Below are positions 7,129 through 46,345 of a stretch of DNA of 64,000 bases, in pieces. The number at the start of each line of letters is the position of its first letter. Within the stretch, counting starts at the first letter, position 1. The notes beneath the pieces are model-generated. The model had not been told where the DNA came from and ran no database searches. It worked only from the letters and a program-made list of their open reading frames with translations. A program made the translations under genes and the position numbers. Origin of the DNA: Acidobacteriota bacterium (GTDB taxonomy: Bacteria; Acidobacteriota; Blastocatellia; RBC074); NCBI GenBank assembly GCA_033763255.1, contig JANRKX010000024.1, positions 12,835-76,834 on the forward strand. Reading direction: 5' to 3'.

Positions 7129-8072
7129 TGCGAATCGAAAAACTGACGATCCCAACTCCCTTCCCTGTTGGCCCGATCAACATTTATCTGGTCATCGAAG
7201 ACCCGTTGACGCTGGTGGACACCGGCCCAAAAACCGATGAAGCTCTGGCGGCGTTGCGCGCGCAGTTGCAGCAACTCGGTTTTTCTATCAAAGACATCCA
7301 GCGAGTCATCCTCACGCACACGCACGAAGACCATTGCGGATTGGCCGCAACGATTCAGCAGGAATCCGGCGCGCGGGTTTACGTTCACGAATGGGAATAC
7401 CAGAACATCTCCGAACACAGAGCCACGCGCGTCAATCGCAACTTGCTGATTCCCGCCGGAGTTCCCGCCGAAGAATTGGAAACGATGGCTGGCCGTTACG
7501 AACTGATTCACCATTACGCCGACGCAGTGGCAAACGTTGAAGCTTTCCGAGATGAGCAGGAATTCGTGTTCGCTTCAGGCAGTTTGCGCATCGTTCACAC
7601 GCCCGGTCACACGCCGGGAAGCTGCTGTCTGCTGCGCGAAGCGACTCGGCTGATGCTGACTGGCGACACGGTGTTGAAAACCATCACGCCGAATCCAGTT
7701 TTGAACTCTGACCCGGTTGACCCGAGCCGCCGCTTTCCTTCGTTGGGAGAATATCTGGTGTCGCTGGCCAGGATTCGAGAATTGGCTCCGACTCTGCTGA
7801 AAACTTCACACGGCGGAGACGTGACCGATTACGAAGAACACTTTCACCGCTCCGTAAAACAGATTCAGGAGCGCCAAAACAAAGTCATAGGCTTTGTCGC
7901 TAAACAAGGTGTCACGGCCTGGGAAATGTCTAAGCTGCTGTTCCCAAAAGTGGACAACCTGAATCGGTTCTTAGCCGTTTCCGAAGCCGTCGCCCATCTT
8001 GATCTGGCCGTTGCCGAAGAAAAACTGCGCATCGAAAAGCGCGGCGACGTGGAATTTTATCTGCGCTATTGA
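7128..8072 (+). CDS. MBL-fold metallo-hydrolase
   Basis: HxHxDH motif LTHTHEDHCG, then later HTPGHTPG. ATG 7128 overlaps the upstream stop by 1 nt. Confidence 0.9.
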   Translation: MRIEKLTIPTPFPVGPINIYLVIEDPLTLVDTGPKTDEALAALRAQLQQLGFSIKDIQRVILTHTHEDHCGLAATIQQESGARVYVHEWEYQNISEHRATRVNRNLLIPAGVPAEELETMAGRYELIHHYADAVANVEAFRDEQEFVFASGSLRIVHTPGHTPGSCCLLREATRLMLTGDTVLKTITPNPVLNSDPVDPSRRFPSLGEYLVSLARIRELAPTLLKTSHGGDVTDYEEHFHRSVKQIQERQNKVIGFVAKQGVTAWEMSKLLFPKVDNLNRFLAVSEAVAHLDLAVAEEKLRIEKRGDVEFYLRY

Positions 8073-15577: not shown

Positions 15578-15678
15578 GTGGATTCCTCTAGTTGTTGCGA
15601 AGCTGAAACTACGCCCGGCTCGGCCAAAAGGTTCGGCAGAGTTGAGATTCATTCGAGGATGCACTGGCGGGAATTCTT

Positions 15679-15753
15679 GATTGCGGAATGCGGATTTCGG
15701 ATTGCGGACTCGTTCAATCGAACTCCGCAATCCACAATCCGCGATCCGCAATC
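15679..15753. repeat. long imperfect palindrome built from GATTGCGGA-type units
   Basis: The left arm gattgcggaatgcggatttcggattgcgga is nearly complementary to the right arm tccgcaatccacaatccgcgatccgcaatc. It lies between the PPIase stop and the permease start. Confidence 0.85.
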
Positions 15754-15756
15754 AAA

Positions 15757-19482: not shown

Positions 19483-19502
19483 CATCGAGAAACCAGAAAA
19501 GA

Positions 19503-19602
19503 AATTAGCCATTGACCATTCGCCATCAACCATTATCCGACAGGTAGAGATGCTTTTTACCCTGCCTAATAATGGTCAATGCGTAATGGTCAATGGCTAA
19601 TT
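19503..19602. repeat. 34-nt-arm inverted repeat built from CCATTGAC-type units, between convergent genes
   Basis: The left arm aattagccattgaccattcgccatcaaccattat (19503-19536) pairs with the right arm ataatggtcaatgcgtaatggtcaatggctaatt (19569-19602). The reverse complement of the right arm differs at only a few positions. The loop is 32 nt. Confidence 0.88.
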
Positions 19603-19627
19603 TTGGCCGCGTAAATCAGCGCCATTA

Positions 19628-24957: not shown

Positions 24958-27900
24958 ATGAAAAGAAAAACTCTGTACTTCGCCACCTTCGTCGTGATCG
25001 TTGGCATTTTTTCTCTGATTTTTACGGTTACGGCGCAACGCCAGCCAGAGTCAGTTTCTCAAGCTCAGACCCAGCGCCGCGTTCCGCAACGCCAGGAAGA
25101 TTTCGATATTCGCGCCGGATTGAATCGCTCGCTGCCGGTTTTGCCCGCCGAAGCCAAAGCCGCCGCAAACGAAGGTCGTCAACTCATCCCGGCGCGCAAT
25201 TCGCGGTTGCGCCGCGAACGTCCGAGCGTCGAAATGCAGTTCAGCAATCTGACCAACGCGCCCAGCCGCGTGTACAGCTTCACGCAAAACCTGACGCAAT
25301 CCACCGCCGATGTCGAAGCCGGAGCCAGGTTCTTCCTGAAACAAAACAACGATCTTTACCAATTGCGCGATGACGAAGTTGACGGTTTGCGAGTCGCGCG
25401 CCGTTACAAAACCGATCACAACGGCGTGACGCATTTGACCTTGCAACAAGAGGTCAACGGCATAGAAGTTTTTCAGGGCGATTACAGCTTTCACTTCGAC
25501 CGTTTCGGTTCGTTGATTACCGCCGGAGGCGAATTGATTCCAGCCGCTGTGCGTTCGGCAAATCCTGCTCGACCGCGTTTGACGCCGAATGCCGCGTTTC
25601 GCCGAGCCGCAGAGTTCGCCGATGTCGAATTGACCGGCGAAGCGACAACCAAAACTCCTGCTGCGGGCCGAGCCTTGAAACAGAAACTTTCGCTCACCGA
25701 GAAATTCGGGCGCGACATCGAAGCTCGACTTGTGTATTTCCCTGCGCTGGGCGATCAATTGCGGCTTGCTTGGGAGTTTGAATTGTGGCTGAACGAAACG
25801 CCGGACGTTTATCAAATGGTTGTGGATGCCGACAGCGGCACGTTGCTCTATCGCCGTAATCTGACGGCGTATTGTTTTGATGGCAACGGTACAGAACCGG
25901 GAGCGGTAGCGATCGGGTCTGCTCTTGATGGCGGCGGTACAGAACCGGGAGCGGTAGCGATCGGGTCTGCTCTTGATGGCGGCGGTACAGAACCGGGAGC
26001 GGTAGCGACCGGGTCTGATTTTGTTACTAATCACATTCACCAAAATGCTGCCCGGTCGCTACCGCTCCCGGTTCCGTACCAGACGCAGCCGAATCCGCGC
26101 GGACTGGTTTTTACCAAAGAAAGTCCGCGCCCGAATCTGCCGGTTGTCAGCAGCAATCCGCCAACGGTGCAGCGCGAAGAATTGCCGTTTCGCCCTGCGC
26201 CTTACAACGGCTCGACGATTTATCCAGCGAACGATCCGCGTAATGATTGGTGGAACGGTCAAACGCCCACGACGTTCACAGGCAACAATACGGACACCTA
26301 CCTCGACCGCGATTCCAACAACTCGCCGGATGACGTTCCGCGACTGACCGTGCCGGACAGTAATTTTTCGTTCCCGCTTGATCTGACGATGGCTCCAACG
26401 ACGCCCGACAACCAGAAAGCTGCGCTGGCCAACGTGTTTTATTGGGTCAATCGCTATCACGACATTTTGTATCTGTTCGGGTTTAACGAAGCCGCCGGAA
26501 ATTTCCAAACCAGTAATTTCAATGCAACCAGCGGATTGGGCAACGATCCGGTTCGCGCCGAAGTGCAGGACGGCAGCGGAACCAACAACGCCAATTTTTC
26601 GACTCCGGCGGATGGTTCACCCGGTCGCATGCAGATGTTTTTGTGGACTGGCAATCCGCAACGCGACGGCGATTTCGATCAAGGGGTCATCATTCATGAA
26701 TTGACGCACGGGCTGAGCCTTCGTCTGGTTCGTCCACTTTCCGGGTTCCAGCAAATGGGCGAAGGCTGGTCGGATTATTTCGGCATCGTTCTGCTGGCTT
26801 CGGAATCCGACAACCTGGATGGCAGTTACGCCGTCGGCCAGTTTGCCACTGGAAATTATTCGCGCGGCATTCGGCGATTTCCTTACAGCACGAATCCGTC
26901 TGTGTATCCGCTGAATTACGCCGACATCACCACCAGCATCGCTCCGCACGGAGTCGGCGAAATCTGGTGCAACACTTTGCTGGAAGCGCGCGCGCAATTG
27001 ATTCGCAAACTCGGTTTCACCGAAGGCCAGCGCCAAAGCATCCAATTGGTTGTGGACGGCATGAAGCTGTCTTCGCCGTCGCCTTCGTTTTTGGATTCGC
27101 GCAATTCGATTTTGCAGGCCGACCGCGTCAACAACGGCGGCGTCAACCAATGCGCTTTGTGGACTGCCTTTGCCAAACGCGGGATGGGATTTTCGGCTTC
27201 GACGTTGGACGCGCGCGACACGGTTCCGTCGCAAGCTTTCGACATGCCGCCGTTTTGCAGCGATCTGGGAATCGTTCAATTCGATCAGAAATCTTACCTG
27301 CTGGGCGAAACCGTTCGACTGGCTTTGGGTGATCGAAATTCGACCGGAACTCAAACCGTCAAAATTCGCAGTTCGGTCACGGGCGACGAAGAAATTCTGA
27401 CGATGACCGCCGATGCCAGATATTTGGGCGCGTACAACTCCAACTTGCGCGTAGTTGCCGGAGCGGCGATTCCGGGCGACGGTCAGTTACAAGCTTCGCT
27501 GTCGGCGCGCGACAAAATCATTGTCACTTACGAAGACGCCAACAACGGCAGCGGAACGTCGGCTCAAATCACGGCGCAATCTGAAATCGTCGGCGAAAAA
27601 ACTTTGTTCGATGATTCGGTTGAAACAGGCAATTTAGGATGGAGCGTGTCCGGCGTTCCAGCCAGCACCTGGGCGATTGCGGAAACCGCGTCGGCGTCTG
27701 GTTCGCGTTCGTGGACGGACAGTCCCAACGGAAGTTACGCCGCCGGAACAAACGCTTCGCTGGTGTCGCCTTTGATGGATTTGTCGCAAGCCGTCGGCGT
27801 CATGCTGACTTTCGCGCATCGGTATGCGTTCACGAACGGTTCCGATTACGGCAACGTGGAATTTTCGCTGAACGACGGCGCAACCTGGAATCGCGCAACG

Positions 27901-30846
27901 GCATTCACGGGAACTTCGACGACTTTCAATCAAGTCGTGCTGAAACTGGATGCGCTGGCCGGGCAATCGCGCGTGCGAATTCGATTCCGAACGGCGTCGG
28001 TTTCCATCGCCGATGGGTGGACGATTGATGACATTCGCGTCATTGCGCGTTCGTCCGATCCGGCTGTGATTCCTTCACCGAGCACGCTGGCTCCGGCGAT
28101 CAGCGGGCTGACACCGGCATTCGGACTTCCGACGGGAAACACTGCGGTGACGATCAGCGGAGTGAATTTCACCGAAACCGGCGATGTCAAAGTTTTCTTC
28201 AACGGAGTTGCCGGAGTGAACGTTCGCGCGCTCGGCAGCACTTCAATCGCCGTCAACACTCCGCCGCAAGCCGCCGGCAAGGCCGCTGTGCGCGTCGAAA
28301 CTCGTTACGGCGCGGTGACTCTGTCGAACGCTTTCACCTATTACACCAACGGCACTACCACCGGAGCGCCCGACGTGATGGGAGTTTCGCCAGCTTCCGG
28401 TTCGATGCGCGGCGGAACCGTCGTCACGATCAACGGCTCAAACTTCTCGCCGGAAACGACGGTTCTGTTCGGAGCGCAAACCGCGACGCGAACTTTCATC
28501 AACGCGAACACTCTGCGTGTTACGGCTCCGGCGGCAACGGCAACCGGCGCGGTTGATGTGACTGTGCGAAATTCGGCGACAGCGGAAAAGAAAGTCACAG
28601 GCGGATTCACTTACACAGCCTTGACGCCGCCGACTGTCGCAGTGATTGCGCCGACCGGCGGCGAAAAAATCTTCACCGGCTCGGTAGTTCCTCTGCGCTG
28701 GCAATCGTCTGACAATCGCCGAATCGTTCGGCATCGCGTCGCACTGTATCGCAGCACGACGACTACGCCGCAATTGATAACGAACATTGCCGATCTGGGC
28801 GGGGAATCTTTGTCGTTCAACTGGATGGTTCCGAACAACGCCGCGACGACTGTCGGGCGTTTGCGAGTCGTGGCTGTGGACGACGAAGGCGCGGAAACCG
28901 AAGCATTTTCGACCAGCGATTTCGTCATCGAATCGCGCTGGCAATCGCAAACTATTTTGCCGGGCGGGTTGAATCGTCTGGCCGCTGCCAGCGACAGCAA
29001 ATACATTTATCAAATTGGCGGGCGAACCTCGACCAGCAACGCCGCTTCGATCACTACCGTTCAACGCTTCGACCCATCGGCAGCAACTCCAACATGGGAA
29101 ACGCTGGCCTCACTGCCGTCACCGGTCAATTCCGGCAAAGCCGTCACAGTCGGCGGCAAAATCTACATGCCCGGCGGCATCACTCAAGTCGCCGAAGCGG
29201 ATCGCAGCCATTACGTGTACGACATTGCCGGAAACAGTTGGTCGAAAATGGCCGAACCTCCCATCGGGGTTCACGCTTATTCGGTAGCCGCTGACACGGC
29301 AAACAACCGGTATTTCATGACCGGCGGCAGCGACGTAGTGATTTCCGGTTTGAACAACGCACAGACATACAACATTCAAACCAACACCTGGACTCCGTTG
29401 CCCGCGATGAATGCCGCGCGGTTTGCTCACGAATCGGCTTTTGTTGGCGGCAAGTTGTACGTTGTTGGCGGACGCGGCCCTTCTGGAATGTTGGTCAGCG
29501 GCGAAGTTTTCGATTTCGTCACGCAACAATGGTCGCCGATTGCCAACGTTCCGCGCCAGCGTTGGTACGGCAATAGCGCGCTGGCGCAGGACTCATCCGG
29601 GAAAGTTTACTGGCTGATTATCGGCGGCGAAAACGGCAACAGCGTTCCGATCGATGCTGTGGACGTTTACGATTTTGCAGCCAATCAATGGCTGTCTCTG
29701 GATGGTTCGTACAACCTGCCGACGAGCCGCGCTCGACAGGGCAGCGCGGTGCTCGGCGGATTTGTTTACACGGTCGGGGGCAACACCGGCACAGGTACGA
29801 CGACTATCACCACCAACGAACGGTTTTCGGTAAATGGCCTGACGATCATTTCGCCGAATCAACCGCCATTGATGGTTGTGCCTGCCACACAGCAAATCGC
29901 TTTGCCCGGACGCGAACTCAGTTTCGTGGTTTCGGCTCAGGATTTGGGATCGAGCGTGCCTGTGACAATCACGCCTTCGGGATTGCCGAACGGCGCGACG
30001 TTCAACGCCACGAACGACACCAACAACAGCGCGCGCGGCACGTTCCGTTGGACTCCGACCGCTGGCGATGTTGGCCGCAACATCAGCGTCAGTTTCACGG
30101 CTGCGGACGGTTCGCTCACCGACGTTAAGGTCGTGCAGATCACCGTGGTGCAAACGGCTCCGCTAGCAGCAGTCAACGCGGCGGATTTCCGCAACGCTCC
30201 GCTGGCGGCTGATTCGATTGCGGCGGCCTTCGGATCGAACCTCGCACCGCGCATCGAAATCGCGCAATCCTTCCCGCTGCCAACGTCGCTGGCCGAAACC
30301 ATGCTGACCGTGAATGGCATTCCCGCTTCGTTGTTTTTCGTTTCGCCGACGCAGATCAATTTCGTAGTTCCTGCCGGAGTCGAAACAGGTTCGGCGACGA
30401 TCATCGTCAGCAATGGGCTGGGCAATTATTCGCTCGGCAACATTCAAATCGCCGCAGCGGCTCCGGCGATTTTCACGGCGAACGCTTCGGGAACTGGCGA
30501 CGCTGCGGCTCAAACGACGATTGACGGCGTCAATTTCCTGCAACCGCCGTTCGATGTGTTGGTCAATGGACGCTCGAACATTCTGGTGATGTATGGCACT
30601 GGTTTCCGGCGCGCTCCGGCGACAAATCCGACTGACGGCAACGGCGTCGCCGAATCAGTCACGGCCACGATTGATGGCCGAGCCGCCAACGTGTTGTACG
30701 CAGGCGCTCAAGGCAGTTTTGCCGGGCTGGATCAACTCAACGTTGAAATGCCCGCAAGCCTGGCTGGAACCGGCCCGCGTCGCGTCGAAATCGTCATCAC
30801 CGTCAACGGCGTTACCGCCAATCGCGTGACCATTCAGATCAAATAA
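24958..30846 (+). CDS. giant secreted multidomain M36 (fungalysin-type) zinc metalloprotease
   Basis: It has a signal anchor, an FTP-like propeptide, and the catalytic motifs IIHELTHGLS plus GEGWSDYF. Downstream are a jelly-roll/MAM-like domain, two IPT/TIG repeats (ISGLTPAFG..., VMGVSPASG...), Kelch-like repeats, an Ig-like domain and a C-terminal TIGR03437-like domain (AAVNAADFRNAPLAADSIAAAFG...YAGAQGSFAGLDQLNVEMP). Confidence 0.9.
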   Translation: MKRKTLYFATFVVIVGIFSLIFTVTAQRQPESVSQAQTQRRVPQRQEDFDIRAGLNRSLPVLPAEAKAAANEGRQLIPARNSRLRRERPSVEMQFSNLTNAPSRVYSFTQNLTQSTADVEAGARFFLKQNNDLYQLRDDEVDGLRVARRYKTDHNGVTHLTLQQEVNGIEVFQGDYSFHFDRFGSLITAGGELIPAAVRSANPARPRLTPNAAFRRAAEFADVELTGEATTKTPAAGRALKQKLSLTEKFGRDIEARLVYFPALGDQLRLAWEFELWLNETPDVYQMVVDADSGTLLYRRNLTAYCFDGNGTEPGAVAIGSALDGGGTEPGAVAIGSALDGGGTEPGAVATGSDFVTNHIHQNAARSLPLPVPYQTQPNPRGLVFTKESPRPNLPVVSSNPPTVQREELPFRPAPYNGSTIYPANDPRNDWWNGQTPTTFTGNNTDTYLDRDSNNSPDDVPRLTVPDSNFSFPLDLTMAPTTPDNQKAALANVFYWVNRYHDILYLFGFNEAAGNFQTSNFNATSGLGNDPVRAEVQDGSGTNNANFSTPADGSPGRMQMFLWTGNPQRDGDFDQGVIIHELTHGLSLRLVRPLSGFQQMGEGWSDYFGIVLLASESDNLDGSYAVGQFATGNYSRGIRRFPYSTNPSVYPLNYADITTSIAPHGVGEIWCNTLLEARAQLIRKLGFTEGQRQSIQLVVDGMKLSSPSPSFLDSRNSILQADRVNNGGVNQCALWTAFAKRGMGFSASTLDARDTVPSQAFDMPPFCSDLGIVQFDQKSYLLGETVRLALGDRNSTGTQTVKIRSSVTGDEEILTMTADARYLGAYNSNLRVVAGAAIPGDGQLQASLSARDKIIVTYEDANNGSGTSAQITAQSEIVGEKTLFDDSVETGNLGWSVSGVPASTWAIAETASASGSRSWTDSPNGSYAAGTNASLVSPLMDLSQAVGVMLTFAHRYAFTNGSDYGNVEFSLNDGATWNRATAFTGTSTTFNQVVLKLDALAGQSRVRIRFRTASVSIADGWTIDDIRVIARSSDPAVIPSPSTLAPAISGLTPAFGLPTGNTAVTISGVNFTETGDVKVFFNGVAGVNVRALGSTSIAVNTPPQAAGKAAVRVETRYGAVTLSNAFTYYTNGTTTGAPDVMGVSPASGSMRGGTVVTINGSNFSPETTVLFGAQTATRTFINANTLRVTAPAATATGAVDVTVRNSATAEKKVTGGFTYTALTPPTVAVIAPTGGEKIFTGSVVPLRWQSSDNRRIVRHRVALYRSTTTTPQLITNIADLGGESLSFNWMVPNNAATTVGRLRVVAVDDEGAETEAFSTSDFVIESRWQSQTILPGGLNRLAAASDSKYIYQIGGRTSTSNAASITTVQRFDPSAATPTWETLASLPSPVNSGKAVTVGGKIYMPGGITQVAEADRSHYVYDIAGNSWSKMAEPPIGVHAYSVAADTANNRYFMTGGSDVVISGLNNAQTYNIQTNTWTPLPAMNAARFAHESAFVGGKLYVVGGRGPSGMLVSGEVFDFVTQQWSPIANVPRQRWYGNSALAQDSSGKVYWLIIGGENGNSVPIDAVDVYDFAANQWLSLDGSYNLPTSRARQGSAVLGGFVYTVGGNTGTGTTTITTNERFSVNGLTIISPNQPPLMVVPATQQIALPGRELSFVVSAQDLGSSVPVTITPSGLPNGATFNATNDTNNSARGTFRWTPTAGDVGRNISVSFTAADGSLTDVKVVQITVVQTAPLAAVNAADFRNAPLAADSIAAAFGSNLAPRIEIAQSFPLPTSLAETMLTVNGIPASLFFVSPTQINFVVPAGVETGSATIIVSNGLGNYSLGNIQIAAAAPAIFTANASGTGDAAAQTTIDGVNFLQPPFDVLVNGRSNILVMYGTGFRRAPATNPTDGNGVAESVTATIDGRAANVLYAGAQGSFAGLDQLNVEMPASLAGTGPRRVEIVITVNGVTANRVTIQIK
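25879..26080. repeat. 3 x 48-nt tandem repeat plus an inverted 30-nt copy (palindromic element) embedded in frame in the M36 CDS
   Basis: The tandem copies are at 25879-25926, 25927-25974 and 25975 to about 26018. The segment ggtacagaaccgggagcggtagcgaccggg (25984-26013) is repeated as its reverse complement at 26051-26080 (29 of 30 match) around a 37-nt AT-rich loop. Confidence 0.92.
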
Positions 30847-46200: not shown

Positions 46201-46345
46201 TTGGTGGTCGGTAGTCGGTTGTCAGTGATCGGTTGACGGTCTCAGTTGTCGGCTGCTGCTTGTCGGCTTAAGATTGTTTTCCGAAAATGAGTTCAACAAA
46301 TTCGGGAAAGAACCGACAACCGACCACCAACAACCGATCACCGTT
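46201..46345. repeat. palindromic repeat built from GGTTGTCGG / CCGACAACC units in a divergent intergenic region
   Basis: The left arm ttggtggtcggtagtcggttgtcagtgatcggttg... pairs with the right arm gaaccgacaaccgaccaccaacaaccgatcaccg. The shared blocks are ttggtggtcggt and gtgatcggttg. Confidence 0.75.

Follow-up and report, generated by a model that had tools for sequence, protein, structure and literature searches.

Among the Y1 HUH transposases, a "class 3" carrying the motifs NHVH and Y----Q has been described, mainly from Planctomycetes, Acidobacteria and Proteobacteria; in the sections of that paper available to us, its genes are flanked by "atypical" hairpins with a 5' CnGA foot, of which about 600 copies are given for Solibacter usitatus (Quentin et al., 2018, PMC6006769). 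Intragenic copies of repetitive extragenic palindromic (REP) sequences, and Y1 genes of Acidobacteria with long inverted repeats, have also been noted already, and Rickettsia palindromic elements (RPEs) have been counted among CGTC-tagged repeats, for which no dedicated transposase was found (Di Nocera et al., 2013, PMC3733652). Here we describe a palindromic repeat situated in frame inside the gene of an M36 (fungalysin-type) metallopeptidase, in a stretch of 64,000 nucleotides (nt) of an Acidobacteriota bacterium of the Blastocatellia (GenBank assembly GCA_033763255.1, contig JANRKX010000024.1, positions 12,835 to 76,834). This whole stretch will be referred to as the window, and positions given without a locus name are positions of the window. 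With a probability of roughly 0.8, its hairpin is a head-to-head doublet of a Blastocatellia (mainly Pyrinomonadaceae) family resembling REPs and the REP doublets forming hairpins (REPINs), tied to a Y1 transposase, placed in the M36 linker and with one arm later triplicated locally. The finding is not a new category, being a known kind of element which behaves like RPEs.

The host gene and the parts of the element are given below; L095 and L120 are the two related loci used for comparison.

24958..30846, plus strand: host gene, M36 (fungalysin-type) metallopeptidase, 1962 amino acids, secreted and multidomain (list of open reading frames (ORFs), translation, Pfam/NCBIfam matches, fungalysin structure match)
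25877..25924, plus strand: tandem copy 1, 48 nt, made up of host coding sequence (13-15 nt, TTGATGGCAACGGTA), then the REP-like unit of 27 nt and the opening 6 nt of the loop (repeat finding; host origin of the 5' part from the L095/L120 alignment)
25892..25918, plus strand: REP-like 27-nt unit, copy 1 (CAGAACCGGGAGCGGTAGCGATCGGGT), one mismatch to the family consensus
25925..25972, plus strand: tandem copy 2, 48 nt, not in L095 (repeat finding; alignment offset of 96 nt = 2 x 48)
25940..25966, plus strand: REP-like 27-nt unit, copy 2, one mismatch to the family consensus
25973..26020, plus strand: tandem copy 3, 48 nt, whose REP-like unit forms the hairpin's left arm (repeat finding, folding)
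25988..26014, plus strand: REP-like 27-nt unit, copy 3, no mismatch to the family consensus, with a CAGA foot and the imperfect hairpin ACCGG-GAGCGGTAGCGA-CCGGGT
26015..26049, plus strand: AT-rich loop of the doublet, unlike the loops of other family members and common to the orthologous copy in L095
26050..26076, minus strand: REP-like 27-nt unit, inverted, the right arm, two mismatches to the consensus, translated as RSLPLPVP
25984..26080, no strand assigned: complete head-to-head doublet (REPIN-like hairpin), including a 4-nt palindromic extension GGTA...TACC (inverted-repeat search, DNA and RNA folding, flank analysis)

The three tandem copies of 48 nt recognized in the first-pass annotation of this DNA were recovered by Tandem Repeats Finder and by a repeat search at 25877-26020, the phase originally given being off by 2 nt, with no consequence. 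They stand head-to-tail (2.9 copies, 96% matches, no indels) and are distinguishable through point changes. The inverted recurrence of a 30-nt core was equally borne out, as positions 25984-26013 return inverted at 26051-26080 with a single mismatch (29 of 30); at up to three mismatches this core has four matches in the window, versus none in 100 shuffles. The inverted repeat grows to arms of 40 nt (25984-26023 and 26041-26080), 88% complementary around a 17-nt loop, and in doing so takes in the ATTTTG/CAAAAT pairing that had been read in the loop. The folding prediction which had been suggested as a check gave a very stable hairpin, both as DNA (25970-26095, -45.9 kcal/mol, z = -10.5 against shuffled controls) and as RNA (25860-26100, -123.5 kcal/mol, z = -6.5 against shuffled controls). 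Translation also upheld the intact frame of 1962 amino acids and the peptides predicted from it: frame 24958-30846 is uninterrupted through the repeat and its inverted copy, and reads DGNGTEPGAVAIGSAL DGGGTEPGAVAIGSAL DGGGTEPGAVATGSDF ... NAARSLPLPVPYQ.

The element had been proposed to be a dispersed repeat, and its core is indeed not unique. When the 22-nt core AACCGGGAGCGGTAGCGAYCGG was scanned against one genome per GTDB species, a search in which all counts of stretches and assemblies are lower bounds, it was found on both strands in at least 119 stretches from at least about 79 assemblies, mostly in intergenic positions; 31 further elements lie in roughly 830 kb around the seed matches. 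The labels among the matches listed are nearly all Pyrinomonadaceae, Blastocatellia, "Chloracidobacterium" or Acidobacteriota. Stacking of the matches gives a unit of 27 nt (CAGAACCGGGAGCGGTAGCGACCGGGT) with the consensus (T/A)C(A/G)GAACCGGGAGCGGTAGCGA(C/T)CGG(G/A)T. Upstream of the searched pattern, C stands at -3 in 97%, A (91%) or G (8%) at -2, and G at -1 in 99%; downstream, a G or A is followed by T at +2 in 82%, and the composition is flat past both edges. The foot C(A/G)GA is conserved at 97/99/99% in positions situated outside the searched pattern. A lone unit folds as DNA into CCGG-GA-GC-GGTA-GC-GA-CCGG (-9.8 kcal/mol, z = -4.8). The repeat unit of the family is this 27-nt arm, not the 48-nt segment.

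Among the matches listed, and allowing mismatches, pairs of units are arranged head-to-head in 89 cases versus tail-to-tail in 8, while 160 units are unpaired and 41 have a neighbour in the same orientation. The loops of the doublets span 10-219 nt (median 48) and are unrelated between almost all copies, few within-genome pairs sharing a loop. No target-site duplication was found flanking the doublets beyond the palindrome itself, which in a subfamily extends outward by 2-12 nt. Of the earlier designation "REP/MITE-like", the first half can be retained, as a REP/REPIN-like element linked to Y1, and the second, understood as a MITE (a miniature transposable element with inverted repeats) of the DDE type, is better dropped. 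Same-orientation arrays of units were also observed at L186 2653-3410 (period 71 nt), L127 721-1090 (102 nt) and L039 3883-3980 (about 35 nt), and two of these adjoin a Y1 gene directly; the formation of arrays recurs in the 27-nt family. The unit is furthermore present on contigs binned as a Firmicute (L009, labelled Heliomicrobium) and as another acidobacterial class (L079, labelled Terriglobia), occurrences that could be due to mis-binning or to horizontal spread. In the limited collection searched, no paper on Blastocatellia or Pyrinomonadaceae naming the 27-nt unit was found.

The family is accompanied by an IS200-like Y1 (HUH) gene of 157-168 amino acids with the motifs NHVH and Y----Q, situated between inverted units. 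In L080, an ORF of 157 amino acids has a plus-strand unit 82 nt upstream and a minus-strand unit 31 nt downstream; the Y1 ORF clears the cut-off of the Pfam family Y1_Tnp (24.7 bits versus 23). Homologues adjoin units in L048 and L029, the gene of L048 being flanked by inverted units. These three loci were picked through the repeat; the reverse test took 80 metagenome loci picked by alignment of two proteins alone, and units (up to five mismatches) were found within 400 nt of the gene in 30 of the 80, and on both sides in 20. Close relatives (about 60% identity or more) show a plus-strand unit near -84 and a minus-strand unit at +32 to +54. More distant homologues among the 80 loci lack the 27-nt unit, which is expected if each protein clade has its own repeat. 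The protein family is large (more than 1000 clusters), many of its members being named "REP element-mobilizing transposase RayT" by JGI and several "transposase [Pyrinomonadaceae bacterium]" by NCBI, and in 20 aligned members N-H-x-H, KANATR and Y----Q are invariant or nearly so. Against the NCBIfam model NF047646 (REP_Tyr_transpos), scores of 15.4 and 28.4 bits were obtained, below its cut-off of 80. ORFs located between distant arms in L003 and L050 have no Pfam match, and a full-length element between arms is not supported. In L080, a second copy of the right end of the Y1 cassette, comprising some 45 nt and the unit, follows 138 nt downstream of the first (7690-7735 and 7828-7873).

The history of the insert can be followed in two related loci. 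L095, which is contig CADECP010000003.1 of RBC074, a metagenome-assembled genome (MAG) from a separate study, is 94-95% identical to the window over 8 kb, and its orthologous gene has a matching doublet, loop and site with one left arm, the offset to the window being 96 nt (2 x 48). On the other hand, L120, which encodes protein P0001 and is 81-84% identical, has no arms, and its 88-nt linker differs. The first-pass annotation had asked whether the insert is absent from orthologues: it is from the 84%-identical L120, whereas in the 94-95%-identical L095 it is present with a different copy number. Since L095 carries the doublet at the matching site, the doublet is older than the split from RBC074; it would be younger than the split from the L120 lineage, or else have been lost there. 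The 48-nt unit starts with TTGATGGC, i.e., the codons of the conserved F-D that closes the propeptide block in all homologues, and as it contains host codons, the triplication is a segmental tandem duplication rather than a repeated insertion. The local amplification that had been proposed is in this sense supported by the 96-nt offset to L095, with the correction that what was amplified is a 48-nt segment including host codons, distinct from the family unit. The junction of the duplication sits between two TTTTG-like runs, an arrangement that would fit slippage or unequal exchange. When the window is compared with L095, 4 of about 93 positions of the element have changed, a divergence similar to that of the flanks and with no compensatory changes; this favours neutral vertical descent over selection on the stem. 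A derivation of the loop from ancestral host sequence was also considered and is not supported: a MAFFT alignment with L120 looked suggestive, but the local alignment score of 14 was also attained in 468 of 2000 shuffled sequences and with 254 of 2000 segments taken at random from L120.

The encoded protein comprises an FTP propeptide, M36, TIG, Kelch and Soli_cterm domains according to Pfam and NCBIfam, the last of them acidobacterial, and the exact 1962-amino-acid sequence has no other record. By Pfam, FTP occupies residues 142-193 and Peptidase_M36 residues 430-747, and residues 43-378 of mature fungalysin (4k90_A) align to residues 438-755 of the protease. Since position 43 of the fungalysin chain aligns to residue 438, the mature N-terminus is expected near residue 395, and the insert (residues about 308-375) is immediately N-terminal to it. 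In an alignment with ten homologues, a conserved block ...LLYRxNLTxYCFD is followed by 0-50 unalignable residues, similarity returning at PHGLVFTKDSPRP; the insertion site can be regarded on these grounds as a hypervariable linker between propeptide and catalytic domain. The earlier placement of the insert between the FTP propeptide and the mature M36 domain, at a tolerant site, agrees with the Pfam matches, the fungalysin alignment and this linker of 0-50 unalignable amino acids. The linker segment is probably removed together with the propeptide, and for the protease itself the insert would most likely be neutral. The homologue P0004 has another short peptide repeat, PVFLPFLPFLPFLLPS (FLPFLPFLPF), in the equivalent propeptide/catalytic linker (alignment A1, columns 355-375), which suggests that the M36 linker site accepts repeats generally.

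Copies inside genes are the exception. An ORF that continues for 80 codons or more on both sides covers 13 of 117 elements, versus 47% of random control segments; the family is predominantly extragenic, and its elements avoid genes. The intragenic copies are in frame and affect genes for SucD, kynureninase-like, sulfatase-like, MutS2-like and large uncharacterised proteins. Of the unit's six frames, one is interrupted by a stop codon (TAG) and the remaining five are open, at least four of them being used inside genes (EPGAVATG, RTGSGSDR, PVATAPGS, RSLPLPV). At L073 5018-5044, a single unit in SucD (the alpha subunit of succinyl-CoA synthetase) gives an insertion of 14 residues (SEVRTGSGSDRIPQ) with respect to the solved structure 6mgg_A. 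At L084 944-970 and L106 7466-7492, from two species-level MAGs, the unit is read as SEPGAVATG at the equivalent site of a kynureninase-like gene, and to judge from this shared position it can be taken as an orthologous intragenic copy. Finally, L057 6770-7078 contains five tandem units with the same 48-nt period as in the window plus one inverted unit, an array open in frame from the C-terminus of a GlcD-like protein into the next reading frame, possibly a gene fusion or an annotation trap.

Taken together, a series of events may be outlined for the doublet reading. The CnGA foot and the small imperfect hairpin would constitute the type of single-stranded DNA signal that is bound and cut by Y1 HUH transposases of the IS200/RAYT superfamily, where RAYT denotes the REP-associated tyrosine transposases, and the Y1 gene between inverted units would correspond to the arrangement of a REPtron. 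A doublet would have been placed in the M36 propeptide-to-catalytic linker in the common ancestor of this genome and of MAG RBC074, presumably by this enzyme. The insert may have survived by virtue of five stop-free frames out of six, a frame-keeping length and a hypervariable linker, which probably leaves together with the propeptide. At a later time, and in this lineage only, the 48-nt segment (host codons, left arm and loop start) would have been duplicated twice in tandem, most likely through slippage or unequal exchange at short TTTTG-like homology beside hairpin-forming sequence, adding 32 residues of Gly/Ala/Pro-rich linker.

Several observations weigh against this reading. No further unit is present in the 64-kb window, nothing having been found down to 9 mismatches, the level reached by shuffles, nor does the window contain a Y1 gene. 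The case for a putative transposition of the family is one of distribution, and the loops differ in almost all copies, so that the mobile unit may be a single arm or a doublet. L120 is not a clean empty site by which the inserted segment and its target could be delimited; the triplication, in turn, is seen in this assembly only. The class 3 assignment rests on motifs and flanking structure, as described in the available sections of Quentin et al. (2018), and not on the profile or hairpin sequences of those authors. A variant of the favoured explanation, which we consider unlikely, is that units are installed singly, preferentially as inverted pairs around pre-existing host DNA, turning host stretches, coding linkers included, into long hairpins; installation one at a time would account for the different loop of almost every doublet. 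If true, such a Y1 system would be a class-wide generator of new structured DNA/RNA and peptide segments, and not a mere copier of a fixed REPIN.

Other readings of the hairpin start from the gene or from its product. A very stable hairpin is predicted in the mRNA and has persisted while the flanks of the window and L095 diverged by 5-6%, as might be expected of a gene-specific regulatory RNA structure (an RNase III site, a ribosome pause or an attenuator) controlling the protease. We nonetheless see little probability in such a role, given that the same sequence occurs in hundreds of unrelated contexts, that the stem is not followed by a T-run, and that it has diverged about like its flanks (4 changes in about 93 nt), some changes weakening the pairing and none being compensatory; an Rfam search returned no family at threshold, the best hit being a generic miRNA-type hairpin with 38 bits versus a gathering score of 90. 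An intrinsic terminator was rejected for the missing T-run after the stem, the sole terminator-like match being a small unrelated stem at 25852-25869, within chance expectation. The opposite emphasis, on the peptide, would make of TEPGAVA(I/T)GS a Gly/Ala/Pro-rich linker module selected at the protein level, and of the inverted copy a coincidence. In its favour, the tandem copies keep the frame and their product would make a plausible flexible linker, at a place where the linkers of homologues vary and where P0004 has its own repeat FLPFLPFLPF. This is nevertheless the least credible of all the explanations considered, as the same 27 nt are mostly intergenic, occur on both strands and are read inside genes in at least four different frames, with conservation at the nucleotide level and sharp edges that ignore codons; the peptide, moreover, is found neither in the 84%-identical orthologue nor in any more distant homologue. 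For the unit as such, its multi-frame, both-strand and mostly intergenic distribution refutes the protein-level repeat.

Two further possibilities concern the origin of the doublet itself, and both are in our opinion very improbable. Metagenome-derived sequence may contain inverted chimeras or mis-assembled repeats, and in these genomes repeats of the family are common and could mislead short-read assemblers; in addition, the exact protein is without another record and the three-copy state is seen in this window only. Against an assembly or amplification artefact, the independent MAG behind L095 has this doublet too, with the same loop and site, so that for the doublet an artefact is effectively refuted, and for the copy number not formally; the ORF, besides, is open over 1962 amino acids, and the three copies can be told apart by point changes. 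On the other hand, the 27-nt arms could be the terminal inverted repeats of a MITE derived from a DDE insertion sequence, with the Y1 gene as a bystander, an idea which suits inverted arms around a variable interior and the palindrome extending 2-12 nt beyond the arms in a subfamily. What speaks against it is that each arm is a foot-plus-hairpin, that single arms and same-orientation arrays are common (160 unpaired units, 41 tandem neighbours), that target-site duplication is lacking beyond the palindrome's own contribution, and that no DDE gene was seen between arms in the 119 loci, where the ORFs between distant arms are without a Pfam match. Furthermore, units stand at fixed distances on either side of the Y1 gene in loci picked without the repeat. 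The REP/REPIN-like doublet with its Y1 enzyme is accordingly the explanation we prefer, and the first-pass reading is upheld in its essentials.

The window has three other long hairpins, at 19502-19603, 15677-15755 and 46201-46335, with arms of 43, 32 and 24 nt, respectively. They are made of low-complexity heptamer-like runs (e.g., GCGGAAT/GCGGATT); by the ORF list, the first two appear intergenic, and the third reaches from the end of an ORF into the beginning of the following one. Low-complexity runs of a similar kind adjoin REP-like units in L024, L026 and L038. These hairpins may belong to another class of repeats, or be a style of terminator that these genomes use.

With respect to its significance, the system provides a well delimited repeat family, together with a candidate enzyme, for the little-studied class 3 branch of the Y1 HUH transposases; in the sections available, the only description found for this branch closes by calling for experiments. 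It also shows that RPE-like colonisation of genes in frame, including that of an enzyme of central metabolism, occurs in free-living soil Acidobacteria. From a practical point of view, annotators and assemblers of Blastocatellia MAGs should be aware that the 27-nt units give rise to odd peptide inserts, possible gene fusions and contig breaks.

Compared by description with class 3, in so far as the available part of Quentin et al. (2018, PMC6006769) allows, the present system would belong there by its motifs, foot, phylum and profile size. The likeness comprises a protein of about 155-178 amino acids, NHVH, Y----Q, an acidobacterial host, CnGA-footed flanking hairpins (here C(A/G)GA) and many copies. 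The examples in that part are from Solibacter, Planctomycetes and Proteobacteria, and it mentions neither the 27-nt unit nor Blastocatellia hosts, nor does it describe in-frame insertion into genes or doublets with variable loops.

The resemblance to the REP/REPIN-RAYT systems of Proteobacteria (Bertels and Rainey, 2011, PMC3116915; Ton-Hoang et al.; Di Nocera et al., 2013, PMC3733652) is broad: hairpin units with a tetranucleotide foot, mainly arranged as head-to-head doublets; clusters and arrays, mostly extragenic with occasional intragenic copies; a Y1 gene flanked by units; no target duplication; and an apparently long vertical persistence across related species. In contrast, the foot is CnGA here instead of GTAG, the tyrosine motif is Y----Q instead of YI..NP, the proteins score 15-28 bits, under the REP_Tyr_transpos cut-off of 80, and the spacer varies greatly in both length and sequence, unlike the common spacer described for REPIN populations. 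The family is not one of canonical GTAG-REPs, nor is its protein a class 2 RAYT. With the arrays of REPs known as bacterial interspersed mosaic elements (BIMEs) it shares local groups of units (3 + 1 in the window, 5 + 1 in L057, 4 + 4 in L186); the repeated segment of the window differs in including host coding sequence, being a segmental tandem duplication rather than an array built of units.

The RPEs, to which the element had been likened from the start, are repeats of 100-150 nt of obligate intracellular Alphaproteobacteria; foot, size and host differ, there is no sequence relationship, and about 10% of the copies of the 27-nt family are intragenic. The analogy holds for behaviour only, and at that level it is borne out by the in-frame copies in genes, that of SucD among them: in both cases a palindromic repeat stands in frame in coding genes, adds a translated peptide segment to the product and is accommodated at the surface or in linkers.

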